A DNA stretch of 64,000 nt. Source: Eubacteriales bacterium. Its GTDB lineage: Bacteria > Bacillota > Clostridia > Oscillospirales > CAG-272. Below are positions 12,760 to 63,593 of this stretch, piece after piece (position 1 is the stretch's first letter; every line of letters begins with the position of its first letter). The stretch is from the NCBI GenBank assembly GCA_045596925.1, contig JAZODH010000041.1, positions 1,594 through 65,593 of the forward strand, given 5' to 3'. Made by a program: the position numbers and the translations under genes. The notes under the pieces were generated by a model. That model saw only the letters and a program-made list of their open reading frames with translations, had not been told where the DNA came from and searched no databases.

Positions 12760-13902
12760 TCAATCAAGGAATCCCTTGAGATGTCTTGCTCTGCTGGGGT
12801 GGCGCAGTTTGCGGAGCGCCTTTGCCTCGATCTGGCGGATTCTCTCTCTTGTGATATCAAACTCCTTGCCGACCTCCTCCAGCGTTCTACATCTGCCGTC
12901 ATAGAGACCGAAGCGCAGTCTGATAACGTGCGCCTCACGGGGTGTAAGCGTTCCCAGTTCCTTCTCGATGACCTCGCGCAGAATTGCCGTGGAAGCGGAA
13001 TCGGGAGGTGCAGGTGTATCCTCGTCGGGAATGAAGTCGCCCAAGTGGCTGTCCTCCTCCTCGCCGATAGGAGTTTCCAGGGAAACGGGGTCCTGTGAGA
13101 ATCGCATGATCTCGCGGACCTTATCCGCCTGCATACCCATCTTCTCGCCGATCTCCTCGGCGGTGGCCTCGCGTCCCAGCTCCTGCATCATCTGTCTGGA
13201 ATATCTTGACACCTTGTGGATAGTCTCCACCATGTGAACGGGGATTCGGATAGTTCTTGCCTGGTCGGCGATAGCGCGGGTAATGGACTGGCGGATCCAC
13301 CAGGTAGCGTAGGTGGAGAACTTGTAGCCTTTTGTGTGGTCGAACTTCTTGACTGCCTTCATCAGACCCAGGTTACCCTCCTGGATAAGGTCCAGGAAGA
13401 ACATTCCCTTGCCCACATAGCGCTTTGCGATACTGACGACAAGTCGCAGATTGGCCTCGACCAGCTTGCTCTTTGCCTCTTCGGCTCGCTCGCCGCCCTC
13501 GCCCATCTGCTGTGCCAGCTCAAGTTCCTCTTCGAGTGTGAGAAGCGGAACGCGGCCGATCTCTTTGAGGTACATACGGACGGGGTCGTCGATGGCAAGA
13601 CCCTCGGACTCAAGAAGCTCCGCCATTTTTTCGGGCTTATTGTACTGAGCCACCTCGTTCTCGATCTCGCGGATATCCTCGCCCTCAATCTGCTCGGGAA
13701 TGATGTCTATGCCATTTTCCTCAAGGTCGGCGTAAAGCTTATCCAGCTTATCCATGTCGAAATCCATGGCTTCCATGGCTTCCTCAATGTCGGCACTTGA
13801 CAGCTTTCCCTTCTTGCCTTTCTCTATAAGGGAGACAGTGTCCACCTTTTTCGCGTTTTCTTTAATTTCCGTGTTTTCAGTATTTTCCAAAATTTCTTTC
13901 AT
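12760..13902 (-). CDS. rpoD: RNA polymerase sigma-70 factor RpoD/SigA (full-length copy)
   Basis: 380 aa. [17 protein letters not shown] (region 1.2). [35 protein letters not shown] and [29 protein letters not shown] (regions 2-3.0). [21 protein letters not shown] (region 4.2). Confidence 0.92.
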
Positions 13903-13960
13903 TTTCGTTTTCCTTCAATATAAAGCGTTTCGCCTGATTTTCTTTATATTTTTGCGTCTC

Positions 13961-14989
13961 TTAGTCGATAAATCCTCTGAGGTTCTTTGCATGGCTGTGA
14001 TTTCTCAGCTTGCGGAGCGCTTTCGCCTCGATCTGGCGGATTCGCTCGCGGGTGATCTCAAATTCCTGTCCCACTTCTTCAAGAGTTCTTGCGCGTCCGT
14101 CGATAAGACCGTATCTGAGCTTTATTACCTGCTCCTCGCGGGGAGTCAAAGTGTGAAGCTCGCGCTCGATAGCCTCGCGCATCATCAAAGCTGACGCAGC
14201 CTCGGCAGGAGACGGCGTGTCGTCATCGGGAATAAAATCTCCCAGACGGCTGTCTTCTTCCTCACCGATAGGGGTGTCAAGAGACAACGGCTCCTGCGAA
14301 TAACGGCGGATATCCCGGATCTTTTCGGGGGTCAACCCGATCTTCTCGGAGATCTCCTCGACCGTAGGCTCGCGTCCAAGCTCCTGCTGCATCTGACGTG
14401 AGCATTTTGCGATCTTATGCACCGTTTCAACCATATGTACCGGGATTATCTCCTGTTCTGCAAGAGCACGGGATATGGCTTGGCGTATCCACCAGGTAGC
14501 ATATGTAGAAAACTTGTATCCCTTTGAATAATCGTACTTATCAACCGCCTTCATCAGACCTAGAGTTCCCTCTTGGATCAAGTCAAGGAAAGGCATTCCT
14601 CGTCCCACGTATTTCTTTGCGATGCTGACCACAAGTCGCAGATTGGCGTTGATGAACACCTGCTTTGCGTCCTCATCACCTTCGGAGATGCGGATAGCCA
14701 GCTCCCTTTCCTCCTCGGATTTAAGCAGTGGCACGCGTCCGATCTCCCGCAGGTACATACGAACAGGGTCGTCAATGGTAAGACCGTCCTGCTCTAACAT
14801 GCTCTCCATTCTCTCCGAGGTGTCGTACTTTTCAACCTCCTCATCGGACTCAACGTCCTCCGTTCCTCCGGGGATCATCACACCTTCGCTGCGCAGATCC
14901 TCCAGCATGGCATCAAAAGCATCTTCCTCCGCCTCGGATTTTGGTGTTTCCTCGGGTATTTCAATTTCTTTTATTTCTTCTTTTTTCAA
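13961..14989 (-). CDS. second RpoD-type (group 1/2) sigma-70 factor, shorter paralogue
   Basis: 342 aa. TTG start with GAGGTG SD. Regions 1.2-4.2 are all present and closely match the downstream copy. It lacks most of the N-terminal region and reads [10 protein letters not shown] where the other copy has [13 protein letters not shown]. Confidence 0.85.
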
Positions 14990-15008
14990 AATTCACCTCT
15001 CGACCGCG

Positions 15009-16787
15009 TCAGATCTCGTCTTTTTTCTTTTTAAGCGCTTCCCTCTTGCGCCGCAGAGCGGCAAAGGGGTCGTCAGCGCTTTTATCGGCCTGACTCAGTC
15101 TTTCCTTTTTCAGTGTATTTACAGATTCCCGCAAAACCTCCAGTGTGTTTTGCAAAAGCTCTTTTCTGTCTCTGATGTATCTCATCATTCTTCCCATCTC
15201 ATCGGGGTTAAAGTCCTGTCCAAGCAGTGAGAAGGAAAATCCGCCGTCGGATCTTTCAAGCTCCATTATCGACTCAAAAACTCTCCGACCGAAATCGGTA
15301 AAGAAGTCGTCGGTGTCAAGCTCTATTTTACCACTCACAACGGCGGCGCGGTGGTCGTCGTATTGGAGAAGCATGCCGATGATCGCCTCCTCGGCGCTTG
15401 ACATTTTCACGTTCTTTGCCGCGTCGGGATTTACGGTATCTCCGTAGCGGTGAACGCTTTTCAGCGCCTCGCTGCTCTCGTTTTTCCTCATTTCCCGAAC
15501 CATCTTGCGACGATGCCGTTCAACGTCGTTTTTCAGCGTTTCGGGAGACACGTCGATGCGCTTTGCCGCTTCCCTTATATATACTTCCCGTTCAACCGCC
15601 GACGTAACAGAAGCAATTATTTCACAAATTGCCGCCGATGCGCGAATTTTTTGAGCCGTATCGGAAATATTATACCTTGAAAGCACGCCGTTCAGCTTGA
15701 ATTCAAAGCCGGTCTTGCCGCCCTCAAGCAATTTTTTGAAGCGGTCCGCGCCATGCGCCTTTATGTAATCGTCGGGATCCATGTTGTCGGGTATCGTCAG
15801 CACTCTGACCTCAAGTCCCACCTCGGAAAGAAGCCTCATGGCTTTATTGGTGGCATTTTGTCCCGCCGCGTCGCCGTCGTAGGAAATTATGACCTTTTTG
15901 GTATACTTTGCCATAAGACGCGCCTGCTCGGGTGTAATTGCAGTACCCAGCGTCGCCACGGCGTTTTCAAATCCCGCCGCATGGAGCGCAATAACGTCCA
16001 TATAGCCCTCGCAAAGGATCATTTCCTCCGAGCAACAGCTTTTTGCAAAATTCAGGGCAAAAAGGTTACGGCTCTTTTTAAATCCGGGGGTATCCGAGGA
16101 GTTTATATATTTCGGCTTTGAGTTATCAAGGACTCGTCCGCCAAAGGCTATGATATTTCCCGCAACGTCGATTACGGGAAACATGACCTTCCCTCGGAAA
16201 TAGTCGTAGCACCTGCCCGTTTTCTGACTTTTTCCGCAGAGAAACGCGGTGGTCAGCTCGCGATCGGTAAATCCCTTTGATTTCAGGTGATCCGTGAGCA
16301 TATTAAAGCTGTCAGGCGCAAATCCAAGCCCGAAATGCTTTATGGTCGCGCCGCTTAATTTTCTTTTTGCCAGATATTCTCTGCCCGGCGCGCCGATCTT
16401 TTCGTCAAAAAGGCATTGACGGAAGAATTTCGCCGCTTCCAGGTTCATATCGAACACGCGGCGGCGGGAAACCTCGTCGCTCTTTGCGTATTTTTTGTCC
16501 TCGGGGATAGTAATACCCGCCCGCGCCGCAAGAAATTCAACGGCGGAGGGATAGTCAAGGTTTTCCGCTTTTTTTATAAAGGTTATAACGTCGCCGCCCG
16601 CGCCGCAACCAAAGCAGTAAAAGCTCTTTGTGGCGGGAAACACCGTAAAGGACGGAGATTTCTCCGAGTGAAAGGGGCAAAGTCCGCTCATATTGGAGCC
16701 TGCCCGCTTCAGTGAGACGTAAGATCCGATAACGTCGGTAATATCACTTCGGTAAAGGATCTCGTCGATTATTTCTCTGGGGATCAT
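15009..16787 (-). CDS. dnaG: DNA primase DnaG
   Basis: CHC2 zinc finger GLCPFHSEKSPSFTV. TOPRIM motif ILCEGYMDVIAL...YDGDAAG. 592 aa. Confidence 0.95.
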   Translation of the reverse strand: MIPREIIDEILYRSDITDVIGSYVSLKRAGSNMSGLCPFHSEKSPSFTVFPATKSFYCFGCGAGGDVITFIKKAENLDYPSAVEFLAARAGITIPEDKKYAKSDEVSRRRVFDMNLEAAKFFRQCLFDEKIGAPGREYLAKRKLSGATIKHFGLGFAPDSFNMLTDHLKSKGFTDRELTTAFLCGKSQKTGRCYDYFRGKVMFPVIDVAGNIIAFGGRVLDNSKPKYINSSDTPGFKKSRNLFALNFAKSCCSEEMILCEGYMDVIALHAAGFENAVATLGTAITPEQARLMAKYTKKVIISYDGDAAGQNATNKAMRLLSEVGLEVRVLTIPDNMDPDDYIKAHGADRFKKLLEGGKTGFEFKLNGVLSRYNISDTAQKIRASAAICEIIASVTSAVEREVYIREAAKRIDVSPETLKNDVERHRRKMVREMRKNESSEALKSVHRYGDTVNPDAAKNVKMSSAEEAIIGMLLQYDDHRAAVVSGKIELDTDDFFTDFGRRVFESIMELERSDGGFSFSLLGQDFNPDEMGRMMRYIRDRKELLQNTLEVLRESVNTLKKERLSQADKSADDPFAALRRKREALKKKKDEI

Positions 16788-18525: not shown

Positions 18526-19317
18526 TTACTTCCCAAATGCTTTGGCAATACCGTTTGCCACCGCATCGCACAGGTCCGACTGCCAGGCAGGATCGAGTAT
18601 CTTCTCCGCGTCGGAGGGCGTGGTGGCAAAGCCCAGCTCAAGGAGCGCCGAGGGAAGATTTGTGTACTTGGTCACGATAAAAGCATTGTCCCAGCTATCC
18701 GCAAATTCTTTTCTCGGCGTGTCGGGAAAGCTTTCTTCAAGGGAGTCGCAGATCGAACGGAAAACCAGCTCGGAATACCTCGACGAGCCGTTTTCGGCAC
18801 AGTAATCTATCTCAAAGCCCTCGGCCGTAGTCGAGGTTGCGCTGGCGTTCACGTGGATCGAAAGGAAATAGTCAGCCTCCCTTTCATTGAGGAGCACGTT
18901 CACATAAACGGCACGCTCGTAGGCATCGAAAACTCCGTTGTCCTTGATGTTTTCCTTTTTGTATTCGATACCGTAGCGGTCTGCCTTTTCGGTCAGCTCC
19001 GTTTCGCTGATATATGTCTCGCCGTCGTGGGTCAAAAGCACCTCGAAGCCCTTTGCTTCAAGCCTGTCCTTGAGCTTGTAAACATAGCTGAGCGTAATAT
19101 CTCTTTCATTTAGACCGTTCAGGTAATCGGAGGTACAGCCGGGGTCTCCAAATCCGTGACCAGCGTCAAGAAGGATAGTCATTTTCCCGTCCTTGCCGGG
19201 CAGTGCTGCTCTGATATCCTCATCGCTGAGGATTTTGCCGTCCTCGGGATCACAGGCAAAAAGGCAGCAAAGCGCCGACAGGCAAAGCAATATGCAAAAC
19301 AACTTTTTCATGTTCAT
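18526..19317 (-). CDS. N-acetylmuramoyl-L-alanine amidase (Amidase_3) lipoprotein
   Basis: Signal/lipobox LSALCCLFAC. Zinc-amidase motifs ILLDAGHGFGDPG and LSIHVNA. C-terminal PSALLELGF. Confidence 0.85.
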   Translation of the reverse strand: MNMKKLFCILLCLSALCCLFACDPEDGKILSDEDIRAALPGKDGKMTILLDAGHGFGDPGCTSDYLNGLNERDITLSYVYKLKDRLEAKGFEVLLTHDGETYISETELTEKADRYGIEYKKENIKDNGVFDAYERAVYVNVLLNEREADYFLSIHVNASATSTTAEGFEIDYCAENGSSRYSELVFRSICDSLEESFPDTPRKEFADSWDNAFIVTKYTNLPSALLELGFATTPSDAEKILDPAWQSDLCDAVANGIAKAFGK

Positions 19318-19397
19318 CTATACGTTTCTCCGTTTTTCGTGCAAGCGCGGTCTATCTTCCTTCAATTATTCTATTATACACGAAATTGCAATCTTTT

Positions 19398-19910
19398 TCA
19401 AGATTTTTTCGCATTAAAAAGCATTTTCTGCTCTTTAATTTTTTCCATTCCCGCGCCGATAGCCTCGTCGCTTCCGCGGCACAAGGCGGCAAGGACTCTA
19501 TTGCCGTAAATTTTCACCGAAAAATCCGCTTCGCCAAGTCCCAGCTTTTTGGCGGTTTTCATGGCAAGGTCAAACCGCACGGCACAAAGTCCGCCCACGG
19601 CCTCTGCCGTGTCGGGGTCGGGACAGTCAAAAACAGAAAGCTCGAAAAGAGACACTCCGCCCGCAAGGTACACCGCACCTCTCACTCCCGAAAAATCAAA
19701 GTCACCGTAAAGCTCCGACAAAAGCTCGTGTGAAAGGTGATCGGGCGCACCCTGCGAGCTTTCGGTGGTGTACACACTTCCCGACACCCTGCTCTCGCAC
19801 GCCTCAGACATGGCAAGCACCGCACCGCGGACGTCCGCCCGCACTCTCTGACATGAGCAAAAGGTCACCGCCAATACAAGAACCGCAAAAACGCTTATTT
19901 TTATTCTCAC
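19398..19910 (-). CDS. hypothetical small lipoprotein
   Basis: GTG start with GAGGAG SD. Signal peptide ending VTFCSC. No family recognised with confidence. Confidence 0.5.
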   Translation of the reverse strand: MRIKISVFAVLVLAVTFCSCQRVRADVRGAVLAMSEACESRVSGSVYTTESSQGAPDHLSHELLSELYGDFDFSGVRGAVYLAGGVSLFELSVFDCPDPDTAEAVGGLCAVRFDLAMKTAKKLGLGEADFSVKIYGNRVLAALCRGSDEAIGAGMEKIKEQKMLFNAKKS

Positions 19911-20028
19911 TCTGCCATCTCCTCTTATAAATATTCTCTCAGCACTATTAAATTCACCAAACCAAACCGTTATTTAGCCGTTTTTTTGTCCAAAAATCAC
20001 AATGATATCGCATTATTTCAAAAAAGGG

Positions 20029-20058
20029 TTGACAAAAAGGTGAATTTGTGTGTATAAT
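20029..20058 (+). promoter_or_regulatory. candidate sigma-70 promoter of the aro operon leader
   Basis: TTGACA (20029-34), 18-nt spacer, TATAAT (20053-58). Consensus hexamers with a slightly long spacer. Confidence 0.5.
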
Positions 20059-20090
20059 TAAACATCGAAATTTTGCAGGAGGAACATACC

Positions 20091-20165
20091 ATGATGAACA
20101 CAGCTTATCGATTTTATTATTTTTCATGGGGTTATCTGTTCAATTCTGCGAGATCGGCGCGTTAA
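20091..20165 (+). CDS. candidate 24-codon leader peptide MMNTAYRFYYFSWGYLFNSARSAR (aromatic-codon cluster)
   Basis: AGGAGGA (20077-83) lies 7 nt upstream of the ATG. 8 of the 12 codons at 20106-20141 are Tyr/Phe/Trp. TAA stop at 20163-65. Too short for the ORF track. Sits between the promoter and an intrinsic terminator, in front of pheA. Confidence 0.6.
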   Translation: MMNTAYRFYYFSWGYLFNSARSAR

Positions 20166-20211
20166 CGGAAGATAACTTTCGTGTGCCGTGGTCAAATAAT
20201 ATACAGATAGC

Positions 20212-20260
20212 CCGTTGTCATATGCAGAATTTGCATGGTGATAACGGATTTTTTATTTTT
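20212..20260 (+). terminator. intrinsic terminator (attenuator) in the aro operon leader
   Basis: CCGTTGTCATATGCA / TGCATG(G)TGATAACGG hairpin of ~16 bp with one bulge and two G-U pairs (20212-20247). Followed by A-TTTTTT-A-TTTTT. Ends 23 nt before the pheA ATG. Confidence 0.75.
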
Positions 20261-20283
20261 CGGAAAGTGGGGTATATCCTGAA

Positions 20284-21378
20284 ATGTCAGAGCTTGACCG
20301 TGCAAGAGAGATAATAAACGAGATCGACCGCGAGATGGCAGAGCTTTTCTGCCGCCGCATGGAAGCGGTCAAAATGGTCGCAAAGTACAAGCAGGAAAAA
20401 GGTCTTCCCGTTCTTGACTCCGCCCGCGAGGCGGCTGTCATCGAGCGCAACAGCCGGCTTGTAGCGGACGACGAGCTGCGCCCTTATTACGTGAACTTTA
20501 TCACAGGCAACATGGAGATCTCCCGCGCCTTCCAGCACAGATTGCTTGAGGGCATGAGAGTGGCTTACAGCGGAGTACCCGGTGCGTTTGCCAACATCGC
20601 CGCCATGAGGATCTTCCCCGACGCTGTGGCGGTATCCTGCTCCGATTTCCGCTCGGCTTACGAGTCGGTGGAGCGCGGAGAGTGCGACTGTGCGGTTTTG
20701 CCTATCGAAAACAGCCACGCAGGCGACGTTGCCCAGGTTATGGATCTCGCCTTCTTCGGCTCGCTTCACGTGACGGGCGTTTACGATCTGCAGGTGATTC
20801 AGAATCTTCTGGGTGTGCCGGGAAGCAGTATAAATCAAATAAGACGTGTCATCAGCCATCAGCAGGCACTTGACCAGTGCGCCGAGTACATCAGAGAGCA
20901 CGGATTTGTGCCCGAGGGTGCGACCAACACCGCAGTTGCCGCCCAGCAGGTGGCGGCAAGCGGAGACCCCACGGTGGCGGCAATAGCGTCTGTTGAGACC
21001 GCGAAGCTCTACGGACTTCAGATCCTTGAGCGCAACATAAACGAAAGCTCCGTGAACACCACTCGCTTCGCGGTCTTCTCAAAGGCGGCGAAGTCGGAAA
21101 ACAGTGCAGACAAGCACTTCTTCCTTTTCTTCACGGTAAAGAACGAGGCGGGCGGTCTTGCAAAGGCGATAAACGCCATCGGCGACGCGGGCTTTAACAT
21201 GAAAGCACTGAAAAGCCGTCCCACAAAGGAACTCATCTGGGAATATTACTTCACCGCCGAGATCGAGGGCAACGCACACACAGAAAAGGGGTGCGAGCTG
21301 CTCAAGAATCTTGAAGAAATATGCAGCAGCGTAAAGGTGCTGGGAAGCTACGACCGCGAGCTTTTGCTGAAAGGATAA
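20284..21378 (+). CDS. pheA: bifunctional chorismate mutase / prephenate dehydratase (with C-terminal ACT domain)
   Basis: N-terminal CM domain REIINEIDREMAELFCRRMEAVKMVAKYK. PDT domain MRVAYSGVPGAFANIAA...LPIENSHAG. ACT-like FFLFFTVKNEAGGLAKAI. Confidence 0.92.
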   Translation: MSELDRAREIINEIDREMAELFCRRMEAVKMVAKYKQEKGLPVLDSAREAAVIERNSRLVADDELRPYYVNFITGNMEISRAFQHRLLEGMRVAYSGVPGAFANIAAMRIFPDAVAVSCSDFRSAYESVERGECDCAVLPIENSHAGDVAQVMDLAFFGSLHVTGVYDLQVIQNLLGVPGSSINQIRRVISHQQALDQCAEYIREHGFVPEGATNTAVAAQQVAASGDPTVAAIASVETAKLYGLQILERNINESSVNTTRFAVFSKAAKSENSADKHFFLFFTVKNEAGGLAKAINAIGDAGFNMKALKSRPTKELIWEYYFTAEIEGNAHTEKGCELLKNLEEICSSVKVLGSYDRELLLKG

Positions 21379-21381
21379 AAT

Positions 21382-22389
21382 ATGATAATTCCCATAAATT
21401 TAGGAGAAAACAGCTACGATATAACCCTTGAGCGGGGCGCTCTTGCCCGTGCGGGCGAGATCTTCGATCTTGACCGTCACGCACTTATCGTCACCGACAG
21501 CGGAGTACCGAAAAAATACGCAGAAACAGTGGCACGGTGCGCAAAAAGGGCGGATATAGTCACCTTCGAACAAGGTGAGGCGAGCAAAAGCTTTGATACT
21601 CTGCGCACTCTCCTCCGCGCACTGACAGAAAACAGCTACACCCGAACCGACTGCGTGGTGGCAGTTGGCGGCGGTGTGGTCGGCGACATTGTGGGCCTTG
21701 CCGCGTCCCTGTTCATGCGCGGGATAGACTTTTACAACATTCCCACTACCCTGCTTTCGCAAGTGGACTCCTCTATCGGAGGAAAGACCGCCGTTGATTT
21801 CGAGGGCTACAAGAACATAATCGGCGCATTCAAGCAGCCAAAGGGTGTCATCATCGACCCCGACGTGCTCGAAACGCTTCCGAAGCGACAGCTTGCAAAC
21901 GGTCTTGCGGAGTCGATAAAAATGGCGCTCACCTGCGATCGCGAGCTTTATGAAATGATCCGAGACAATGATGCTTTTGAGGATATCGACAACGTAATTC
22001 ACCGTTCGCTTCTCATCAAAAAGAACGTAGTGGAGCAGGATGAACGGGAAACGGGTCTGCGCCGAGTGCTCAATTTCGGTCACACGGTAGGACACGCCGT
22101 TGAGACCGAATGCGGACTGACCGAGTTCTATCACGGCGAATGCGTGGCTATCGGCATGATCCCTATGCTTACACCCGAAATGAGAGAACAGGTGGCGACA
22201 GTCCTTGCAAAATACGGTCTGCCATCAAGGTCTCCGATCCCCGCCGAGAGGCTGATAAAAACCATGAGTCACGACAAAAAGGTTGACGGCAGTTTTATAC
22301 ACGCGGTATTTGTGCCCCGTGCGGGAGAATTTGAAATAAAAAAGCTGAAATTTGAGGATTTCGCAAATCTTATAAAGGAAACTTTGTAA
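21382..22389 (+). CDS. aroB: 3-dehydroquinate synthase
   Basis: VAVGGGVVGDIVG, GGKTAVD and LNFGHTVGHAVE motifs. Confidence 0.92.
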   Translation: MIIPINLGENSYDITLERGALARAGEIFDLDRHALIVTDSGVPKKYAETVARCAKRADIVTFEQGEASKSFDTLRTLLRALTENSYTRTDCVVAVGGGVVGDIVGLAASLFMRGIDFYNIPTTLLSQVDSSIGGKTAVDFEGYKNIIGAFKQPKGVIIDPDVLETLPKRQLANGLAESIKMALTCDRELYEMIRDNDAFEDIDNVIHRSLLIKKNVVEQDERETGLRRVLNFGHTVGHAVETECGLTEFYHGECVAIGMIPMLTPEMREQVATVLAKYGLPSRSPIPAERLIKTMSHDKKVDGSFIHAVFVPRAGEFEIKKLKFEDFANLIKETL

Positions 22390-22390
22390 A

Positions 22391-23494
22391 ATGAAGAACA
22401 CGTTTGGAAACAACATTTCTTTAACTATATTCGGAGAAAGCCACGGAAATGCTATCGGCGCGGTCATTGACGGTCTTGCGCCGGGTATTCCCGTAGACGA
22501 GAGCAAGATCGCTTCTCTGCTCTCTCTGCGCCGTCCCGCGGGAAAGATCTCCACCTCTCGTCGCGAGGAGGACAAGTTTGTGATCAAAAGCGGAGTTTTC
22601 GAGGGGTACACAACGGGAACGCCCATTTGTATTCTGATACCCAACGAAAATACCAACAGCCGTGATTATTCCGCCACCCGCGCCCTGGCGCGGCCCTCTC
22701 ACGCAGACTACAGTGCATACGAAAAGTACCACGGATTCGAGGACTATCGCGGCGGCGGTCATTTCAGCGGACGCATCACTGCCGCTCTTGTTGCGGCGGC
22801 AGGAATACTTATTCCCGCACTCAAGGCAAAGGGCATTTTTATCGGAACCCGCATAAAGAGTATCGCGGGAGTTTGTGACCGCGATTTTGCGGATTTTACC
22901 GAAGATATCAAAACTGTTTCCGAGAAAAATTTCCCCGTTTTCTCCTCCGAAATTGAGGAAGAAATGCAGAAAAAGATACTTGAGGCGGCGCAGGAGGGGG
23001 ACAGCGTAGGCGGTGTGCTTGAGACCGCCGTGATCGGTCTTCCCCGCGGTCTGGGCGAGCCTTGGTTCGATACCCTGGAGGGCATGATCTCCCACGCGGT
23101 GTTCTCCGTACCCGCAGTCAAGGGAATCGAGTTCGGCGCGGGATTTGGCGTAGCCGAGATGCGCGGAAGTCAGGCAAACGACGCAATGCGAATGGAGAAC
23201 GGCTCCGTCATCACACAAAGCAACACCAACGGCGGCATCGTGGGCGGAATTTCAAACGGCGCTCCCTTGCTTTTCCGTTGTGCTGTCAAGCCCACGCCTT
23301 CTATTTTCAAACCGCAGGAAACGGTTGATTTCCTCAAAGGCGAAAATGCGACTCTGTCTCTTGTCGGTCGCCATGACCCCTGCATCGTTCACCGCGCGGC
23401 GGTGGTGGTGCGCTCTGTCACGGCTCTTGCTCTTGCCGACCAGCTTGCAACACGCTACGGCACAGATTGGCTGACCGGAGGCGCAAAAAAATGA
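22391..23494 (+). CDS. aroC: chorismate synthase
   Basis: FGESHGNAIGAVIDG, RPSHADY, GGGHFSGR and VGRHDPC motifs. Confidence 0.95.
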   Translation: MKNTFGNNISLTIFGESHGNAIGAVIDGLAPGIPVDESKIASLLSLRRPAGKISTSRREEDKFVIKSGVFEGYTTGTPICILIPNENTNSRDYSATRALARPSHADYSAYEKYHGFEDYRGGGHFSGRITAALVAAAGILIPALKAKGIFIGTRIKSIAGVCDRDFADFTEDIKTVSEKNFPVFSSEIEEEMQKKILEAAQEGDSVGGVLETAVIGLPRGLGEPWFDTLEGMISHAVFSVPAVKGIEFGAGFGVAEMRGSQANDAMRMENGSVITQSNTNGGIVGGISNGAPLLFRCAVKPTPSIFKPQETVDFLKGENATLSLVGRHDPCIVHRAAVVVRSVTALALADQLATRYGTDWLTGGAKK

Positions 23495-24735
23495 TGTACG
23501 GCTGCATCGGCGAGCATCTTTCTCACAGCTTTTCCCGTGAGATCCATACTCGTCTCACAGATAAATATGATTATATTTTAAAGGAAATTCCCCGTGACGG
23601 TCTCGACGCTTTCATGAAAAGCGGAAGCTTTCAGGCAATAAACGTTACGATTCCCTACAAGCAGGACGTCATTCCGTATCTTGACGTCGTCAGTCCCGAG
23701 GCGCAGAGGATCGGTGCGGTGAACACCATCGTCCGCCGTGACGGTAAGCTCTACGGCTACAACACCGACTTCCTCGGAATGTGCGGTCTCATTCACCGCA
23801 CAGGAATTGATATAAAGGACAAAAAAGTGCTTATCCTCGGCTCGGGCGGCACGTCAAAGACGGCTCTTGCCGTGGCAACTCACCTGGGCGCGTCCGAGAT
23901 TTTTGTTGTCTCAAGGCACCCCGAGGGCGCACAGATAGACTATGAAACGGCAACAACCGCTCACACCGATGCGGAAATAATCATCAACACCACACCCGTT
24001 GGAATGTACCCCAAAAACGGGGGTTGCCCCATTGATATCGGGCTTTTCCCAAGGCTTTGCGGTGTTCTTGACGCAATCTATAACCCCCACAGAACAAACC
24101 TTATAACCGAGGCTCAAAAGCGCTCTATCCCCGCCGAGGGCGGTCTTTATATGCTGGTGGCACAGGCGGCTTATGCGGTCGAAAAATTCCTTGATATCAC
24201 CGTTCCCGAATCGGAATTCGAGCGGGTCTACAGTGCCGTAAGACGGCAAAAGGCAAGCATCGTGCTTGTGGGTATGCCCGGCTGCGGAAAGTCAACCGTG
24301 GGACGTGCTCTTGCGGAAAAAGAGGGACGTCAATTCATCGACACCGACGAGGAAATAACAAGAAAAACGGGCAAAACGCCCGACATGATAATCAGACAGG
24401 ACGGCGTTGACGCATTCCGCGATATTGAAAGCCGGGTGATCGAAGAGGTCTCGTCTCTCAGTTCTGCGGTCATCGCCATCGGCGGTGGTGGAATTTTAAG
24501 AGAGCGAAACGCAGAGCTTCTCCGCATGAACGGAGTTCTCATTTTCCTTAACTGTCCCGTTGACCTTCTGACAGTCTCGGACGACCGTCCTCTGTCAAGC
24601 ACGCGCAAAGCTTTGGAGCAAAGATACCGCGAGCGGCTTCCCATTTACCGCCGTCACGCGGATTTTATCATCGAATCCGACAAAGATCTGGAAAACAACT
24701 TAAAGAAAATCGAAAGCGAACTTGAAAAAATATGA
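23491..24735 (+). CDS. aroE/aroK: fused shikimate dehydrogenase (N-terminal) / shikimate kinase (C-terminal)
   Basis: N-terminal half: NVTIPYKQDV...GAVNTIV...GYNTDFLG and GSGGTSK. C-terminal part: Walker A VLVGMPGCGKSTVGRALA followed by DTDEEI. ATG 23491 overlaps the aroC stop (ATGA); the track start at 23467 is a TTG. Confidence 0.88.
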   Translation: MMYGCIGEHLSHSFSREIHTRLTDKYDYILKEIPRDGLDAFMKSGSFQAINVTIPYKQDVIPYLDVVSPEAQRIGAVNTIVRRDGKLYGYNTDFLGMCGLIHRTGIDIKDKKVLILGSGGTSKTALAVATHLGASEIFVVSRHPEGAQIDYETATTAHTDAEIIINTTPVGMYPKNGGCPIDIGLFPRLCGVLDAIYNPHRTNLITEAQKRSIPAEGGLYMLVAQAAYAVEKFLDITVPESEFERVYSAVRRQKASIVLVGMPGCGKSTVGRALAEKEGRQFIDTDEEITRKTGKTPDMIIRQDGVDAFRDIESRVIEEVSSLSSAVIAIGGGGILRERNAELLRMNGVLIFLNCPVDLLTVSDDRPLSSTRKALEQRYRERLPIYRRHADFIIESDKDLENNLKKIESELEKI

Positions 24736-25163
24736 AACTTCTTATTCTGAACGGTCCCAACATCAATATGCTAGGTATCCGCGAGCCGGGCATCTACGGC
24801 TCGGAAAGCTACGGCGAGCTTTGCCGACAGGCTCGGGAAAAGGCAAAGGAGCTTGGGGTCGAGCTTGAGATCTATCAGACCAACCACGAAGGCGGTCTGG
24901 TAGATAAAATCCAGGAGGCTTACGGAAAAATTGACGGCATCGTGTTCAATCCCGGGGCTTACACTCACACAAGCATTGCAATACTTGACGCGCTGAAAGC
25001 CGTTTCGATCCCTACCGTTGAAGTCCACATTTCGGATGTATCAAAACGAGAGGATTTCAGACAGGTAAGCTACATTCGACCCGTTTGCAAAAAGACCATA
25101 ACGGGTCACGGCATAAAGGGCTATCTTGAAGCCATGGAATTTCTTGCAGGTGCCGAAAAATGA
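24732..25163 (+). CDS. aroQ: type II 3-dehydroquinate dehydratase
   Basis: LNGPNINMLGIREPGIYG, QTNHEGGLVDKIQ, NPGAYTHTSIA and VEVHISD motifs. Confidence 0.95.
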   Translation: MKLLILNGPNINMLGIREPGIYGSESYGELCRQAREKAKELGVELEIYQTNHEGGLVDKIQEAYGKIDGIVFNPGAYTHTSIAILDALKAVSIPTVEVHISDVSKREDFRQVSYIRPVCKKTITGHGIKGYLEAMEFLAGAEK

Positions 25164-26359
25164 AGGTCAGAATTATTCCCGGCCGTGCCTGCGGAGCCAT
25201 CTGTGCGCCACCGTCAAAAAGTGCCGCTCACAGACTGCTGATCTGCGGTGCGCTGGCAGGAAACAGCATCATTCACGGCCTTGAAATGAGCGAGGATATT
25301 CTCGCCACCCTTGACTGTCTGTCCGCTTTGGGTTATCAATTCGCCCTTGACGGAAACACCGTCTCGTTCAAAGGGAAAACGGAGGGTCAAGGCGATCTTC
25401 TCTGCCGCGAAAGCGGAAGCACACTTCGTTTTATGATCCCAATTGCACTTCTGGAGGACGGCAAAAAAACACTCCGAGGGTCGCAACGACTTTTTGAAAG
25501 ACCCCTGACCGTATACGAGGACGTTTTTGAAAAGAACGGTATAAAACACACGCGAGGCGATGGAGCTGTCACGGTAGACGGCGAGCTGAAAAGCGGACAC
25601 TATACCCTGCCCGGCAACGTGAGCAGTCAGTTTATAACGGGGCTTCTGTTCGTTCTCCCTCTCCTTGAGGGTGACAGCAAAATAACTCTTACCGGTGAGC
25701 TTCAGAGCCTGTCATATATTGACCTGACAATTGAAGTGCTCGGTATGTTCGGCATAAATATCGGGCGCGAAGGTGACAACGTTCTGAAAATTGCGGGCGG
25801 GTTCAAATATGAACCGAGAGAGTTGACGGTCGAGGGCGATTGGTCAAACGCCGCGTTTTTTGAGGCGCTGAATCATTTAGGATCTTCCGTCACGATTACG
25901 GGTCTGCGCCAAGACAGCTTACAGGGTGACAAGGTCTGCCGCCGACTGTTTTCGGAGCTTGACAGCGGCACCCCGACGATTTCTGTTGCCGACTGTCCCG
26001 ACCTGGCTCCCATTCTTATGACCGTGGCGGCAACAAAAAACGGAGCGGTATTCACTGACACTGCAAGACTGAAAATAAAAGAAAGTGACCGTGGAGCGGT
26101 CATGGCCGCCGAGCTGGCAAAATTCGGTGCGGACGTTGTGGTTGAGGAAAACCGAATCACAGTCAAAAAAGCACCGCTTCACGCGCCAACCGACACGATC
26201 GACGCCCACAACGACCACAGGATCGCCATGTCAACGGCAATTCTCGGTACTCTGTACGGGTGTGAAATTGCAGGCGCGGAGTGCGTTCGCAAGAGCCTGC
26301 CTTCCTTCTATGAATTACTATCTTCCCTGAACATCGAGGTGCAAAAAGATGAAACTTGA
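25160..26359 (+). CDS. aroA: 3-phosphoshikimate 1-carboxyvinyltransferase (EPSP synthase)
   Basis: PPSKSAAHRLLICGAL, GSTLRFMIP and DHRIAMS motifs. 399 aa. Confidence 0.9.
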   Translation: MKVRIIPGRACGAICAPPSKSAAHRLLICGALAGNSIIHGLEMSEDILATLDCLSALGYQFALDGNTVSFKGKTEGQGDLLCRESGSTLRFMIPIALLEDGKKTLRGSQRLFERPLTVYEDVFEKNGIKHTRGDGAVTVDGELKSGHYTLPGNVSSQFITGLLFVLPLLEGDSKITLTGELQSLSYIDLTIEVLGMFGINIGREGDNVLKIAGGFKYEPRELTVEGDWSNAAFFEALNHLGSSVTITGLRQDSLQGDKVCRRLFSELDSGTPTISVADCPDLAPILMTVAATKNGAVFTDTARLKIKESDRGAVMAAELAKFGADVVVEENRITVKKAPLHAPTDTIDAHNDHRIAMSTAILGTLYGCEIAGAECVRKSLPSFYELLSSLNIEVQKDET

Positions 26360-27203
26360 CAAAAATATGAATATACTTATCGTGGGTCTCGGTCTCATCG
26401 GCGGCTCATACGCACAGGCGCTTACAGAAAAAGGCTACAAAATAACCGCCATCACAAAGGATCAATCGTCTATTGACTATGCGCTCGAACACGGTTATAT
26501 CGAAAAGGGTTACACCGAGGTCACCGAGGAGGCGGTTTCCTCCGCCGATCTTCTGATCTTTGCCCTTTACCCCCGTGTTTTCACGGCTTGGCTTGAGCAG
26601 TACGGCAAGCTGATAAGAAAAGGCGCCGTGGTCACAGACGTGACGGGCGTAAAGGAAGCGATCATCGACCGCGTGCTCTATCTTTTGCCCGACGGCGTTG
26701 AGTTTATCGCCGCTCACCCCATGGCAGGTCGCGAGCTTTCGGGTATCGAATACAGCGATTCAAGCCTGTTCCGAGTCGCAAACTACATCGTAGTGCCCAC
26801 CGAGCAAAACGAGGAAGAAACCATACAGATGTGCGAGGAGCTTGGACGCGAGCTGGGCTTCGCCCGCATCACCCGTCTTTCCCCTGCCGAGCACGACAAA
26901 ATGATCGCATTCCTCTCCCAGCTCACCCACTGCATAGCGGTGTCGCTGATGTGCACCTCGGACGAGCCGGGACTTGAAAAATACACGGGTGACTCCTTCC
27001 GTGACCTTACCAGGATCGCAAAGATAAACGACGAGATGTGGAGCGAGCTTTTCACGTTAAATCGTCCTGCGCTTCTGGCTCAAATGGACGCTTTTGCCGA
27101 GACGTTCGGTGCTCTCCGAGAGGCTCTGGCAAAAGGCGACACCGACAAAATGCGTTCCATGATGAAAAAGTCTACCGAAAGGCGCAAGCTTTTTGATAAA
27201 TAA
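26349..27203 (+). CDS. tyrA: prephenate dehydrogenase
   Basis: NAD fold ILIVGLGLIGGS. AAHPMAGRE motif. ATG 26349 has a GAGGTG SD; ATG 26367 is an alternative start. Confidence 0.88.
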   Translation: MKLDKNMNILIVGLGLIGGSYAQALTEKGYKITAITKDQSSIDYALEHGYIEKGYTEVTEEAVSSADLLIFALYPRVFTAWLEQYGKLIRKGAVVTDVTGVKEAIIDRVLYLLPDGVEFIAAHPMAGRELSGIEYSDSSLFRVANYIVVPTEQNEEETIQMCEELGRELGFARITRLSPAEHDKMIAFLSQLTHCIAVSLMCTSDEPGLEKYTGDSFRDLTRIAKINDEMWSELFTLNRPALLAQMDAFAETFGALREALAKGDTDKMRSMMKKSTERRKLFDK

Positions 27204-27233
27204 AAATTCTGCTTGAAATAGAGGTATCAGAAA

Positions 27234-28262
27234 ATGAACATGAATTTCAAAAGAAAACTCCCCATTCCGATGGACATCAAGGAGGAGTTCCCCGTATCCA
27301 TCAAGATGCAGCAGGACAAGGTCGCCCGCGACGTTGAGATCAAGAAGATCTTCCGCGGCGAGAGCGACAAATTTCTGCTTGTTATAGGCCCCTGCTCTGC
27401 CGACCACGAGGAATCGGTTCTCGACTATATCGGACGCCTTCGCACCGTTCAGGATCAGGTCAAGGACAAAATTCTTATCATTCCCAGAATCTACACAAAC
27501 AAGCCCAGAACGACGGGCGACGGCTACAAGGGCATGCTTCACCAGCCCGATCCCGACGCCGCTTCCGATATGCTTGGCGGCATTATCGCCATTCGCCGTC
27601 TTCACATGAGAGCTCTGTCCGAGTTTGGATTCAGCTGTGCGGACGAGATGCTCTACCCCGAAAATCACCGTTACCTGTCCGACCTGCTCTCCTACGTTGC
27701 CATCGGTGCACGCTCGGTTGAAAACCAGCAGCACAGACTGACAGCCAGCGGTCTTGACATTCCCGTCGGCATGAAGAATCCCACGGGCGGCGACCTGTCG
27801 GTCATGATGAATGCCATTACCGCCGCACACCACAAGCACACCTTCATTTACCGAGGCTGGGAGGTTGAGAGCACGGGCAACCCCTACTCTCACGCCATCC
27901 TGCGCGGATATGTCGACGCATACGGCAAGTCGATCTCCAATTACCATTACGAGGATCTGGCAAAGCTCAACGATATCTATGCCAAGAGCGGTCTTGAAAA
28001 CCCCGCGGTTATCGTTGACACCAACCACGCAAACTCGGGTAAGCAGTGGCTTGAGCAGGTAAGGATCGCAAAGGACATCATGTACAGCCGTTCTCAGAAC
28101 GAGGACGTGAAAAAGCTGGTCAAGGGTCTGATGATCGAGAGCTACATCGAGGACGGCGCACAGAAGATCGGCGAAGGTATTTACGGAAAGTCCATCACCG
28201 ACCCCTGTCTCGGCTGGGAAAAGACCGAAAAGCTTATACTTGAGTTGGCTGAAAAGGTCTAA
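27234..28262 (+). CDS. 3-deoxy-7-phosphoheptulonate (DAHP) synthase, class I-alpha (AroF/G/H type)
   Basis: KFLLVIGPCSADHEE, IPRIYTNKPRTT and GMKNPTGG motifs. 342 aa. Last gene of the aro operon. Confidence 0.9.
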   Translation: MNMNFKRKLPIPMDIKEEFPVSIKMQQDKVARDVEIKKIFRGESDKFLLVIGPCSADHEESVLDYIGRLRTVQDQVKDKILIIPRIYTNKPRTTGDGYKGMLHQPDPDAASDMLGGIIAIRRLHMRALSEFGFSCADEMLYPENHRYLSDLLSYVAIGARSVENQQHRLTASGLDIPVGMKNPTGGDLSVMMNAITAAHHKHTFIYRGWEVESTGNPYSHAILRGYVDAYGKSISNYHYEDLAKLNDIYAKSGLENPAVIVDTNHANSGKQWLEQVRIAKDIMYSRSQNEDVKKLVKGLMIESYIEDGAQKIGEGIYGKSITDPCLGWEKTEKLILELAEKV

Positions 28263-28328
28263 ATCAATCGCTGTTTGGGTCTGTTTTTTGACAGAACAAC
28301 AAAAAAACAAAAAAATTTCAAAAAACTA

Positions 28329-28357
28329 TTGCATTTTGGAAAATCATATGGTATAAT
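28329..28357 (+). promoter_or_regulatory. sigma-70 promoter for rpmB
   Basis: TTGCAT (28329-34), 17-nt spacer, TGg-TATAAT (28349-57). Extended -10. Confidence 0.6.
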
Positions 28358-28419
28358 TTCAAATGCTGTAATAAAAAAGTGAAATTTTTGTGCATTAGTA
28401 CACTAAGGAGGTGTCAGTT

Positions 28420-28605
28420 ATGGCAAAATGCTGTGTTTGCGGAAAGGGCGTTGTTTTCGGACAGAATGTTTCCCATTCCCATCGTAAGACAAACAGAACA
28501 TGGAAGCCTAATATCCGTAGGGTTAAAGCTGTTGTAGGCGGCACTCCCAAGACTGTTAGCGTATGTTCAAACTGCCTGCGTTCAGGCAAGATTACAAGAG
28601 CTTGA
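28420..28605 (+). CDS. rpmB: 50S ribosomal protein L28
   Basis: [32 protein letters not shown]... is the canonical L28 sequence. GGAGGTG SD before ATG 28420. Confidence 0.92.
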
Positions 28606-28625
28606 TTTTAAGCTCAATAGAATGA

Positions 28626-28655
28626 GGCAGATGAAAATCTGCCTTCTTTCTTTAT
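28626..28655 (+). terminator. rpmB intrinsic terminator
   Basis: GAGGCAGAT-GAAA-ATCTGCCTT hairpin followed by CTTTCTTT. Confidence 0.6.
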
Positions 28656-28721
28656 GCGTGAAACAAAGCAATAACAAAACTTCAAATTCCGTTATTTCCC
28701 GACATTGGTTGGAGCAGATTT

Positions 28722-29435
28722 ATGAAAATTGCCATCGTAGACAGCAGAATACCAAGGGACGCCGAGTGCGCCCTTTCTGTCTATGCGGACAAGATCGTAA
28801 AATTGCCGCCCTGCTCCCGACTGCAGGCTCCCGTTTCCGCCCACCCGGATATGCTGGTCTTCATAACGGACAGGCAAATAATAACCGGAAAACGGTATTT
28901 CGAAGAAAATCGGGCGATATTCCACGAGCTGTCCCTGCTCTGCGGACGGGAGACCGTTGTGGCAGGCACCGAGCTTGCCCTAAATTACCCAAGCGACGTT
29001 AAATTCAACGGCTTTACCGCAGGCGGGCGAATTTTCGGACTTGCATCGGCACTTTCGGAGACCGTTTTGGCGTGGGCAAAAAAAGCCTCGATCCCCGTCG
29101 TCAACATCCGCCAGGGCTATGCAAAATGCTCGACCTGCGTGGTGACGGAAAACGCCGTCATCACCGAGGATGCGAGCATTGAGAGAGCGATGCTTGAAAA
29201 CGGCATTGACGTTTTGAGAGTGACCTCGGGACAGGTCGCACTTGACGGCTACGACTGCGGTTTTATAGGCGGCGCGAGCGGTGCAGACAGCGAAAACGTC
29301 TACTTTTGCGGGGACGTATCACAGCACCCCGACTTTGATGAGATAGAGAGTTTTTGCCGATGTCACGGCAAAAACTGCGTTTCTCTTGGCATGGGCAGAC
29401 TTTACGATATTGGAACGATTTATTTTTTGGAGTGA
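28722..29435 (+). CDS. conserved-looking hypothetical protein (237 aa)
   Basis: Clean ORF in the same orientation as its neighbours. No motif I can assign with confidence. Confidence 0.55.
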   Translation: MKIAIVDSRIPRDAECALSVYADKIVKLPPCSRLQAPVSAHPDMLVFITDRQIITGKRYFEENRAIFHELSLLCGRETVVAGTELALNYPSDVKFNGFTAGGRIFGLASALSETVLAWAKKASIPVVNIRQGYAKCSTCVVTENAVITEDASIERAMLENGIDVLRVTSGQVALDGYDCGFIGGASGADSENVYFCGDVSQHPDFDEIESFCRCHGKNCVSLGMGRLYDIGTIYFLE

Positions 29436-29481
29436 TCTTAAAGCAATTTTTTAATAAATTCAACTTTTTTTGCAAAAAGCA

Positions 29482-29510
29482 TTGACAAAATCAGATTCGG
29501 GTGATATAAT
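29482..29510 (+). promoter_or_regulatory. sigma-70 promoter of the tRNA-Val/Asp/Gly cluster
   Basis: TTGACA (29482-87), 17-nt spacer, TGa-TATAAT (29502-10). Confidence 0.65.
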
Positions 29511-29528: not shown

Positions 29529-29604
29529 GGGAGCATAGCTCAGTTGGGAGAGCATCTGCCTTACAAGCAGAGGGTCATAGGTTCGAGCCCTATTGTTCCC
29601 ACCA
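29529..29604 (+). tRNA. tRNA-Val (anticodon TAC)
   Basis: Hand-folded cloverleaf. Acceptor GGGAGCA/TGTTCCC, D stem GCTC/GAGC, anticodon stem TCTGC/GCAGA with loop CTTACAA, T arm ATAGG-TTCGAGC-CCTAT. CCA is encoded. Confidence 0.92.
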
Positions 29605-29649
29605 TCCGAGAAAGCACTCTCAGTGCGAGCTTTGAGTGCTTTTTTATGT

Positions 29650-29726
29650 GGCCCGGTAGTTCAGTTGGTTAGAACGCTAGCCTGTCACGCTAGAGGTCAG
29701 GGGTTCGAGTCCCCTTCGGGTCGCCA
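29650..29726 (+). tRNA. tRNA-Asp (anticodon GTC)
   Basis: GGCCCGGTAGTTCAGTTGG... Anticodon stem CTAGC/GCTAG with loop CTGTCAC. T arm CAGGG-GTTCGAGT-CCCCT. CCA is encoded. Confidence 0.9.
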
Positions 29727-29775
29727 ACACCTTTTCCGCAGGAAAAGGTGTTAGAAGATCTTTCATATGAAATAC

Positions 29776-29850
29776 GCGGATTTAGCTCATTTGGTAGAGC
29801 GCGACCTTGCCAAGGTCGAGGTGGCGGGTTCGAACCCCGTAATCCGCTCC
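29776..29850 (+). tRNA. tRNA-Gly (anticodon GCC)
   Basis: Acceptor GCGGATT/AATCCGC. Anticodon stem CGACC/GGTCG with loop TTGCCAA. T arm GCGGG-TTCGAAC-CCCGT. CCA is encoded. Confidence 0.92.
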
Positions 29851-30193: not shown

Positions 30194-30268
30194 TGGCACC
30201 CGCAGCGAGAATCGAACTCACAACTAACCCTTAGGAGGGGTTTATTATATCCATTTAACTATGCAGGC
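30194..30268 (-). tRNA. tRNA-Arg (anticodon CCT)
   Basis: Minus strand GCCTGCATAGTTAAATGGATATAATAAACCCCTCCTAAGGGTTAGTTGTGAGTTCGATTCTCGCTGCGGGTGCCA. Anticodon stem AACCC/GGGTT with loop CTCCTAA. T loop TTCGATT. CCA is encoded. Confidence 0.85.
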
Positions 30269-38909: not shown

Positions 38910-38987
38910 TGGGGTGAGCGATGGGGGTCGAACCCACGACCTCCAGGGCCACAACCTGGCGCTCTGACCAACTGAGCTACGCCCACC
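38910..38987 (-). tRNA. tRNA-His (anticodon GTG), with encoded G-1
   Basis: Minus strand GGTGGGCGTAGCTCAGTTGGTCAGAGCGCCAGGTTGTGGCCCTGGAGGTCGTGGGTTCGACCCCCATCGCTCACCCCA. Anticodon stem CCAGG/CCTGG with loop TTGTGGC. The extra 5' G is typical of tRNA-His. Confidence 0.9.
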
Positions 38988-39007
38988 ATATAAAAAATTG
39001 CGCTGCA

Positions 39008-39084
39008 TGGCGCACTTTGAGGGACTCGAACCCCCGACCTACTGCTTAGAAGGCAGTTGCTCTATCCAGCTGAGCTAAAAGTGC
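39008..39084 (-). tRNA. tRNA-Arg (anticodon TCT)
   Basis: Minus strand GCACTTTTAGCTCAGCTGGATAGAGCAACTGCCTTCTAAGCAGTAGGTCGGGGGTTCGAGTCCCTCAAAGTGCGCCA. Anticodon loop CTTCTAA. Confidence 0.9.
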
Positions 39085-39110
39085 AAGCACGCAACATTCG
39101 CCTTTCGGCG

Positions 39111-39184
<74 letters not shown>

Positions 39185-63565: not shown

Positions 63566-63593
63566 AAAACAGATTTATTGATAATATGCGGCT

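Follow-up and report, generated by a model that had tools for sequence, protein, structure and literature searches.

Leader-peptide attenuation is a textbook mechanism of Proteobacteria, with few cases predicted in Firmicutes. In the enterobacterial attenuators trpL, pheL/pheA, hisL and leuL, a short translated open reading frame (ORF) with a run of regulatory codons precedes a terminator, which competes with an antiterminator whose 5′ arm is located in or near the ORF; an upstream segment sequesters this arm when no ribosome is stalled, and the terminator is the thermodynamically favoured structure, control being kinetic. The pheL leader controls pheA (PMC3082878). Here, we describe a leader in which the same features are found or predicted, located ahead of an operon for the shikimate pathway and for phenylalanine (Phe) and tyrosine (Tyr) synthesis. 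It lies in a 64,000-nt stretch of DNA from an Eubacteriales bacterium of the Clostridia (contig JAZODH010000041.1, positions 1,594 to 65,593), referred to below as the window. From the comparison of related sequences we consider this element, the aro leader, very probably to be a ribosome-mediated (leader-peptide) transcription attenuator, which would couple the operon to charged tRNA-Phe and tRNA-Tyr.

The aro leader differs from its enterobacterial counterparts in several respects. It would sense both Phe and Tyr and control the entire common pathway together with both branches. Its segment 1, which could sequester the antiterminator 5′ arm (segment 2), is the Shine-Dalgarno (SD) and start codon region, and the proposed regulatory codons are located in the loop between segments 1 and 2 instead of within segment 1. 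Its stop codon lies in a separate spacer hairpin at the antiterminator tip, its host belongs to the Clostridia, and there is no similarity to the enterobacterial leaders in sequence or by covariance model.

The system closest in task is the Corynebacterium glutamicum aroR leader (Phe-Tyr-Phe), upstream of the aroF operon, for which stalling under Phe limitation raises transcription while Tyr supply is reported to have no effect (Neshat et al. 2014, as summarised in PMC11802643). As described there, it is also a mixed Phe/Tyr leader before shikimate genes, but it differs by its actinobacterial host, its operon content and its three regulatory codons only. Given the distance between the hosts, homology of the two leaders, compared here by description only, is very unlikely.

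Among Firmicutes, a Lactococcus leu/phe leader is present in Rfam, and Bacillus subtilis has antibiotic-sensing leader peptides. The Phe/Tyr T-boxes of this phylum perform the same task, reading tRNA charging through a choice between terminator and antiterminator, whereas the sensor in the aro leader would be a translating ribosome and not direct tRNA binding. His leader peptides have been predicted in the Bacillus cereus group, Peptostreptococcaceae and Erysipelotrichales (PMC2965389, PMC9413887), and in Acholeplasma uORFC-13-1, upstream of aroF, carries a Phe-coding U-run beside a terminator (PMC8632094). These Firmicutes and Mollicutes leaders are elements of the same kind from the same broad phylum, were found on comparative evidence and have been proposed as replacements for T-boxes or repressors; they concern other amino acids, operons and lineages. 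The initial annotation of the locus had presented such an attenuator in a Clostridia-like genome as unusual. Leader-peptide attenuators are indeed few in Firmicutes, but the his leaders and the Acholeplasma ORF tone down the claim of rarity. In the open-access literature, to which subscription-journal papers such as Panina et al. 2003 (aromatic regulation in low-GC Gram-positives; cited in PMC1262725) do not belong, we found no account of this family, no leader from Oscillospirales and no Phe plus Tyr leader preceding a whole aro/phe/tyr operon.

Organisation of the leader in the window

The initial annotation had listed six items: a promoter, an SD sequence, an aromatic-rich ORF, two sets of complementarities and a terminator. 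Direct reading of the sequence found all six where they had been placed. The coordinates of the leader parts, as delimited in the present work, are collected in Table 1.

Table 1. Parts of the aro leader and the operon downstream, with their positions in the window
Feature	Position	Strand	Description
Sigma-70-type promoter	20029-20058	+	TTGACA 20029-34, 18-nt spacer, TATAAT 20053-58
Segment 1 (putative anti-antiterminator)	20075-20094	+	SD and start codon region; could pair with 20124-49, hiding the ribosome site and segment 2
Shine-Dalgarno sequence	20077-83	+	AGGAGGA, 7 nt ahead of ATG 20091
Leader ORF	20091-20165	+	24 codons, MMNTAYRFYYFSWGYLFNSARSAR; TAA stop at 20163-65
Proposed regulatory codons 6-11	20106-20123	+	TAT CGA TTT TAT TAT TTT (Y R F Y Y F); conservation in the family is highest here, TCGATTTTATTAY
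Segment 2 (antiterminator 5′ arm)	20129-20139	+	GGGUUAUCUGU; within leader ORF, codons 13-17
Spacer hairpin at antiterminator tip	20155-20188	+	-14.8 kcal/mol; contains the stop codon, GTTAACGG and AGATAAC
Segment 3 (antiterminator 3′ arm)	20203-20213	+	ACAGAUAGCCC; C20212 and C20213 also form the base of the terminator 5′ arm
Intrinsic terminator	20212-20260	+	Stem of segments 3 and 4 (20212-47) followed by A-T6-A-T5
Operon pheA, aroB, aroC, aroE-aroK fusion, aroQ, aroA, tyrA, 3-deoxy-D-arabino-heptulosonate 7-phosphate (DAHP) synthase	20284-28262	+	Pfam matches for 8/8 genes

The promoter scores 12/12 and is the top promoter-like site of the region 19300-29500 in a promoter scan; a TTGACA with a -10 hexamer 16-18 nt away occurs at the same place in 53/62 related loci. 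The transcript probably starts near 20065. As a whole, the leader RNA folds better than 200/200 shuffled sequences (z -2.84).

Codons 6-17 of the leader ORF comprise 4 Tyr, 3 Phe and 1 Trp. Such a density is unusual in the window, since at least eight aromatic codons were found in only two places among 87,967 stop-free 12-codon windows (64 kb, six frames). The other place, 14939-14990 (+), was discarded because it is antisense to a sigma-factor gene, at the Lys/Glu-rich start of the latter. By eye, the sigma-factor region (12760-16787, -) contains two adjacent RpoD-like genes (12760-13902 and 13961-14989) following a DnaG-like primase gene (15009-16787). The count of 8 aromatic codons out of 12 made in the initial annotation is right, but it overstates the sensor, since W13, Y15 and F17 lie within segment 2. 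We propose codons 6-11 as the regulatory codons and putative ribosome stall site. Their five aromatic codons are all of the NNT form (TTT, TAT), which is the minority form in the operon genes of the window; together with the rare CGA codon between them, this codon choice suits a sensitive sensor. The leuL leader likewise uses less-used codons (CUA).

The terminator hairpin (15 pairs with one bulge) reaches -17.8 kcal/mol alone as calculated by RNAfold and -19.3 kcal/mol with its flanks, and its T-run is followed after 23 nt by the pheA ATG at 20284. A simple terminator scan missed it because of the bulge. Upstream, the longest inverted repeat of the leader joins segments 2 and 3 in an 11-bp duplex of -18.4 kcal/mol; the complete antiterminator stem-loop, 20129-20213, reaches -33.1 kcal/mol. 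The alternative helix that segment 1 could form contains 17 pairs in three blocks (-19.5 kcal/mol).

The pheA product is a chorismate mutase-prephenate dehydratase-ACT protein. Pfam matches agree with the operon content given in the initial annotation, namely the common shikimate pathway plus the Phe and Tyr branches, and no trp genes are present in the operon.

Distribution of the leader and its genomic setting

Relatives of the locus were fetched through PheA from species-representative genomes (80 loci, labelled Acutalibacteraceae, Oscillospiraceae, Ruminococcaceae, Eubacteriales and similar). PheA identity to the window is 87-88% for the three closest loci (L001-L003) and 55-64% for the others. 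A first set of 46 leaders was used for an alignment and a DNA profile, and an enlarged set (alignment A2) comprises 79 distinct sequences. The nhmmer profile of the 46 leaders matches 62/80 related loci and matches the window once, at 20070-20258. When the profile was built without the clade of the window, this same interval was still its sole match in the 64 kb (E 3.7e-9). A strict-pattern scan of metagenomes added 25 loci, all located ahead of aminotransferase-pheA-aroB-aroC-aroEK-aroQ or of pheA-aroB. Short ORF, aromatic core and terminator occur together in the 62 genomes and the 25 metagenome contigs, and every copy of the leader heads an (aminotransferase)-pheA-aroB-aroC-aroEK-aroQ... 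operon, with the same gene order after the leader as in the window. These relatives strongly support the class of mechanism initially suggested, a translated Phe/Tyr-rich leader with a terminator and a structure competing with it.

Aromatic-rich short ORFs near pheA in the relatives are found 74 times on the coding strand and 15 times on the opposite strand. They are located either 150-215 nt or about 1350 nt ahead of pheA. In the latter cases, the ORF immediately precedes a class I/II aminotransferase gene (Pfam Aminotran_1_2) which abuts pheA in most relatives: it is the first gene past the leader in most loci (L004-L078), with about 1200 nt between leader and pheA, and its product probably carries out the final Phe/Tyr transamination step. 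Conserved ‘peptides’ found right before pheA in most relatives (for example MNYCWFQVMISD) were rejected as an off-frame reading of this gene. The aminotransferase gene is absent from the locus in the window and from the operon of its clade, and tblastn found none in the 64 kb.

The 18/80 loci without a profile match include about seven contigs too short to contain the site, six leaderless loci, one permuted operon (L060, with DAHP synthase directly before pheA) and two loci with other leaders. In these two (L080:2780-2990 and L005:2700-2990), pheA is preceded by different aromatic-rich ORFs (...FYSFYYYYFRNKLHSDKA and ...LRFFYCYYYG..., respectively), each followed by a hairpin and a T-run. In L080, the ORF end UCCGAUAA is complementary to UUAUCGGA of the terminator. 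Both leaders may be attenuators of this kind, either of independent origin or strongly diverged.

A 14-nt near-palindrome, TGTGCAAAATTACA, adjoins the -35 hexamer in 7/61 loci (L068, L070, L076, L067, L078, L033 and L059). Two leaderless loci, L058 and L023, show it as well; the window has no copy. A transcription factor controlling this operon may use the site as its operator.

Known leader families did not account for the element. No Rfam leader family (Phe, Trp, His, Leu, Thr and leu-phe leaders) matched within 19850-20400 up to E = 10, the best E-value of 2.1 being to an unrelated small RNA, and at the gathering score no leader family was found in the window or in 32 related loci scanned. 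Similarly, there was no match to the T-box model RF00230, and a text-pattern search of the 500 nt preceding pheA in 81 loci turned up no GGGTGGTACCGCG-like motif. Nor did any regulatory Rfam family match near the operon, in the whole window or in the 32 loci, and a T-box or riboswitch was rejected on these scans.

Coding signature of the leader ORF

In relatives, an SD sequence is conserved and the start codon, an NTG, keeps its place in the alignment (ATG in 35, TTG in 12 and GTG in 10), a variation that is a sign of translation since start codons vary in this way. The distance from the CGA codon to the segment 2 anchor is 16, 19, 22, 25, 28 or 31 nt and stays in phase in 44/49 sequences measured; the five out-of-phase values (-91, -15 twice, 20 and 35) were ascribed to text-pattern anchors matching elsewhere or one base off. 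Around a conserved codon core, R-F-Y-Y, extra Tyr and Phe codons are inserted in frame, aromatic codons range from 3 to 8 per leader and Tyr codons alternate between TAT and TAC. Past the core, the peptide is not conserved and tracks the RNA helix (TDCLY, TDFLS, ADVLC and ADLNT in relatives, WGYLF in the window), which makes a function of the peptide itself unlikely. We infer from these features that the leader ORF is translated.

The core Arg codon (20109-20111 in the window; TCGATTTT in the columns of alignment A2) is CGA in 55 and CGG in 1 of the 56 leaders with Arg at this position, while only 6.6-11% of the Arg codons of neighbouring genes are CGA. Together with the adjacent bases, the codon forms the palindrome AATCGATT. 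Its retention could reflect slow decoding at this codon, an effect of the nascent peptide or a site in the nucleic acid.

A conservation of the core block, with its palindrome, that exceeds the needs of coding, together with the near-invariant CGA, points to constraint at the nucleotide level, as would be expected for a structured RNA switch that responds to a protein, tRNA or small molecule instead of the ribosome, with the short ORF being incidental. T-boxes, riboswitches and RNA-binding proteins are moreover the usual means of such control in Firmicutes (PMC1262725, PMC2965389). Yet neither a T-box motif nor an Rfam match is present. Unless the ORF is translated, it is difficult to account for the conserved SD and NTG start, for lengths that vary by multiples of three, for Tyr and Phe codons added in frame and for where the stop codon is placed. 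In addition, the number of aromatic codons varies while the aromatic character stays, and the non-homologous leaders of L080 and L005, before the same gene, likewise consist of aromatic-rich ORFs with terminators. An RNA switch of this type is, in our judgement, very unlikely.

Covarying alternative helices

All 46 leaders of the first set have a terminator, of -15 to -32 kcal/mol, 50-90 nt past the stop codon. Its basal pairs are paired in 92.7% of cases, with compensatory double changes in 7/8, and RNAalifold applied to the 79-sequence alignment recovers this basal helix (7 pairs). The terminator base was the only structure predicted by RNAalifold on this alignment, the alternative helices being absent from its prediction.

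In the family, the 3′ part of the ORF (segment 2, mostly CGGACUGUCUGU) can pair with segment 3 (mostly ACAGNCAGCCCG), which runs into the base of the terminator 5′ arm; the stretch shared with the terminator is AGCCCG (5-6 nt). The cells of this antiterminator are paired in 76% (46-sequence alignment) and 79% (79 distinct sequences) of cases, compared to 19-45% for slid controls. Two-sided changes occur in 9/14 pairs in the former alignment. In the latter, the covariation score of 0.200 was exceeded in 0/500 shuffles (0.119 +/- 0.007), and one pair varies between G-C (50 sequences), U-A (19) and A-U (3). The 11-bp helix of the window is in register with this covarying helix and is more regular, G20131-C20211 replacing a conserved A.C mismatch of the family and A20134-U20208 a G-C pair.

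The helix between segments 1 and 2 is paired in 72-77% of cases in the family versus 34-57% for slid controls, and 8/9 of its pairs changed on both sides. Taking into account the shuffle measures given below, the comparison lends this helix moderate support. A spacer hairpin is found in most relatives with variable sequence (mean z -2.2) and contains the stop codon in 74/79. The first aromatic codon of the cluster is located 16-34 nt ahead of segment 2. Sequence and comparison together show the parts of the leader and how far they are conserved, as well as its coding signature and the alternative helices that covary.

The initial annotation had placed the competition elsewhere: GTTAACGG (20161-68) or GATAAC (20171-76) would act as segment 2 by pairing with the terminator arm CCGTTGTC (20212-19), and GTTATCT (20131-37) would form the 1:2 helix with AGATAAC (20170-76). 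These complementarities do exist, GTTATCT/AGATAAC being a perfect 7-mer inverted repeat, and AGATAA(C/T) is retained in L001-L003. However, the duplexes are weak (-5.4, -5.8 and -4.1 kcal/mol, versus -18.4 kcal/mol for 20129-39/20203-13), and both proposed segments are located in the spacer hairpin, whose sequence is not conserved across the family. L002 has no GTTAACGG, and conservation in L001-L003 means little given their PheA identity to the window. Since the conserved competitor is the helix of 20129-39 with 20203-13, an attenuator working via the pairings first suggested appears extremely unlikely.

One more candidate structure was examined in the window, an 8-nt perfect complement between AATTCTGC (20142-49), in the ORF just past segment 2, and GCAGAATT (20224-31), at the top of the terminator 5′ arm and its loop, which stands in pseudoknot order with the antiterminator. 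One position is A-U in the window, U-A in L002 and G-C in L001, but two pairs are broken in L003 and the wider family gives no signal (mean z about 0, below -2 in 4/79). This candidate was rejected.

Folding with modelled ribosomes and points against attenuation

With a ribosome modelled at Y6, F8 or Y9, the RNA past its footprint folds into the 11-bp helix and the terminator, deprived of its two basal G-C pairs, weakens from -17.8 to -12.1 kcal/mol. The cost is 5.7 kcal/mol, and the stem is then 3 nt (GGA) off the U-tract. The terminator folds in full for a ribosome placed at Y10, at F11 or on the stop codon.

Across the family, a switch test at equilibrium did not discriminate, the terminator winning in most sequences either way (median basal-pair probability 0.87 with the ribosome stalled and 0.97 with the ribosome at the stop codon), and a test on partial transcripts was used instead. 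When the transcript was ended in the terminator loop, 45/46 sequences had the base of the 5′ arm paired with the 3′ part of the ORF. In naked RNA at equilibrium, the 2:3 helix still forms in 30/46. The terminator winning at equilibrium implies that the switch would have to be kinetic, as in E. coli trp, and kinetics is something that folding cannot show.

Several observations weigh against ribosome-mediated attenuation. Whole-transcript equilibrium favours the terminator in most sequences even with a stalled ribosome, and the 1:2 helix is no better than shuffles on 2/5 measures. A ribosome at the stop codon leaves segment 2 uncovered in the window (24 nt away) and in about half of the family. 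The initial annotation had such a ribosome masking segment 2; in the window it instead sits in the apical spacer hairpin and melts it. As to the competing structures expected from the initial annotation, folding did find an 11-bp competitor, but in the window antiterminator and terminator overlap by C20212 and C20213 only, and the minimum-energy fold of the naked RNA accommodates both helices side by side. Mutual exclusion is therefore marginal in the clade of the window and regulation may be weaker there. Six relatives (L023, L058, L063, L064, L069 and L073) keep the promoter, located directly before the aminotransferase gene, and the operon but have lost the leader and its terminator; the leader is thus dispensable in some lineages. 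No Rfam element replaces it in them. All relatives are metagenome-assembled Clostridia. Finally, RNA polymerase outruns the ribosome in Bacillus subtilis, according to PMC9226507 citing Johnson et al. 2020, and an uncoupling of this type, if it held here, would work against a mechanism that relies on the ribosome.

Some of these observations would also fit a decayed relic in the clade of the window, in which the leader is translated, the terminator is a constitutive damper and control is exerted at the promoter or by enzyme feedback. The 2-nt overlap, which is seen in the window, L002 and L003, and the coexistence of both helices in the minimum-energy fold point in this direction, as do the loss of the aminotransferase gene from the operon of this clade and the loss of the leader in the six relatives. 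Enzyme feedback is also in line with the ACT domain of PheA and with the feedback inhibition common among DAHP synthases. The parts present in the window are nevertheless intact and in register with the family, including the 12/12 promoter, a strong SD, the ORF, the 11-bp helix and a strong terminator, and this helix is, as noted above, more regular than that of the family. Furthermore, a loss of basal pairs and a distance from the U-tract such as those calculated under the modelled stall should lower termination at an intrinsic terminator. We regard decay to a relic as very unlikely.

Proposed mechanism

Among the features expected of an attenuator, the aro leader has its own ribosome-binding site and start codon, a cluster of aromatic codons and a terminator before the first gene. 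An antiterminator sharing bases with the terminator is clear in the family and weak in the window. We propose that ribosome-mediated attenuation would operate as follows, with stalling, its timing and the response to Phe and Tyr modelled on the features above.

A transcript would be initiated at the promoter, and a ribosome would load at the SD and ATG (20077-93) and translate the 24-codon leader. Under a shortage of Phe-tRNA or Tyr-tRNA, the ribosome would stall on codons 6-11, which would block the re-pairing of segment 1 with segment 2 and leave the latter free. Once made, segment 3 could then pair with segment 2 before the terminator 3′ arm exists, with the spacer hairpin capping the stem-loop. 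By holding the basal bases of the terminator 5′ arm, the antiterminator would leave the terminator weakened or short of the U-tract, allowing read-through into pheA.

When both amino acids are plentiful, the ribosome would cross segment 2 and reach the stop codon within the spacer hairpin, where it would unwind or occupy the antiterminator; behind it, segment 2 may re-pair with segment 1. With the antiterminator gone, the full terminator and its U-tract would form and transcription would end. Without translation, segments 1 and 2 would pair and the terminator would form, the default state being off.

The CGA codon in its palindrome AAUCGAUU and the stop codon in the conserved spacer hairpin might in addition constitute a programmed slow-decoding or pausing device, keeping ribosome and RNA polymerase in step. 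We put this forward as a tentative and rather unlikely proposal.

Other features of the window

No clear terminator was found after the DAHP synthase stop codon (28262-28606, +). Past this gene are a promoter-like site, a small Cys-rich ORF (28421-28606), resembling ribosomal protein L28 by eye, and a DUF6873 gene (28722-29435, +). The window also includes seven tRNA genes in three groups (29529-29848, +; 30197-30268, -; 38913-39184, -) and a glycine riboswitch aptamer (63466-63566, -; 50.9 bits).

Significance

The aro leader and its relatives form a family of 79 distinct sequences, absent from Rfam, which lies over the entire shikimate/Phe/Tyr pathway in abundant and mostly uncultured Clostridia of gut and rumen. 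It represents a new cis-regulatory family for annotators to model, and as an attenuator it would account for a joint sensing of Phe and Tyr in these organisms. The switch is also a candidate control point, since metabolites relevant to the host depend in part on how much aromatic amino acid gut bacteria produce. The family also bears on transcription-translation coupling in Clostridia, the model of the phylum, Bacillus subtilis, being uncoupled according to PMC9226507. If the pausing device suggested above were real, an entire order of gut Clostridia would depend on transcription and translation being functionally coupled, and the family would provide a natural handle to measure coupling in Oscillospirales.

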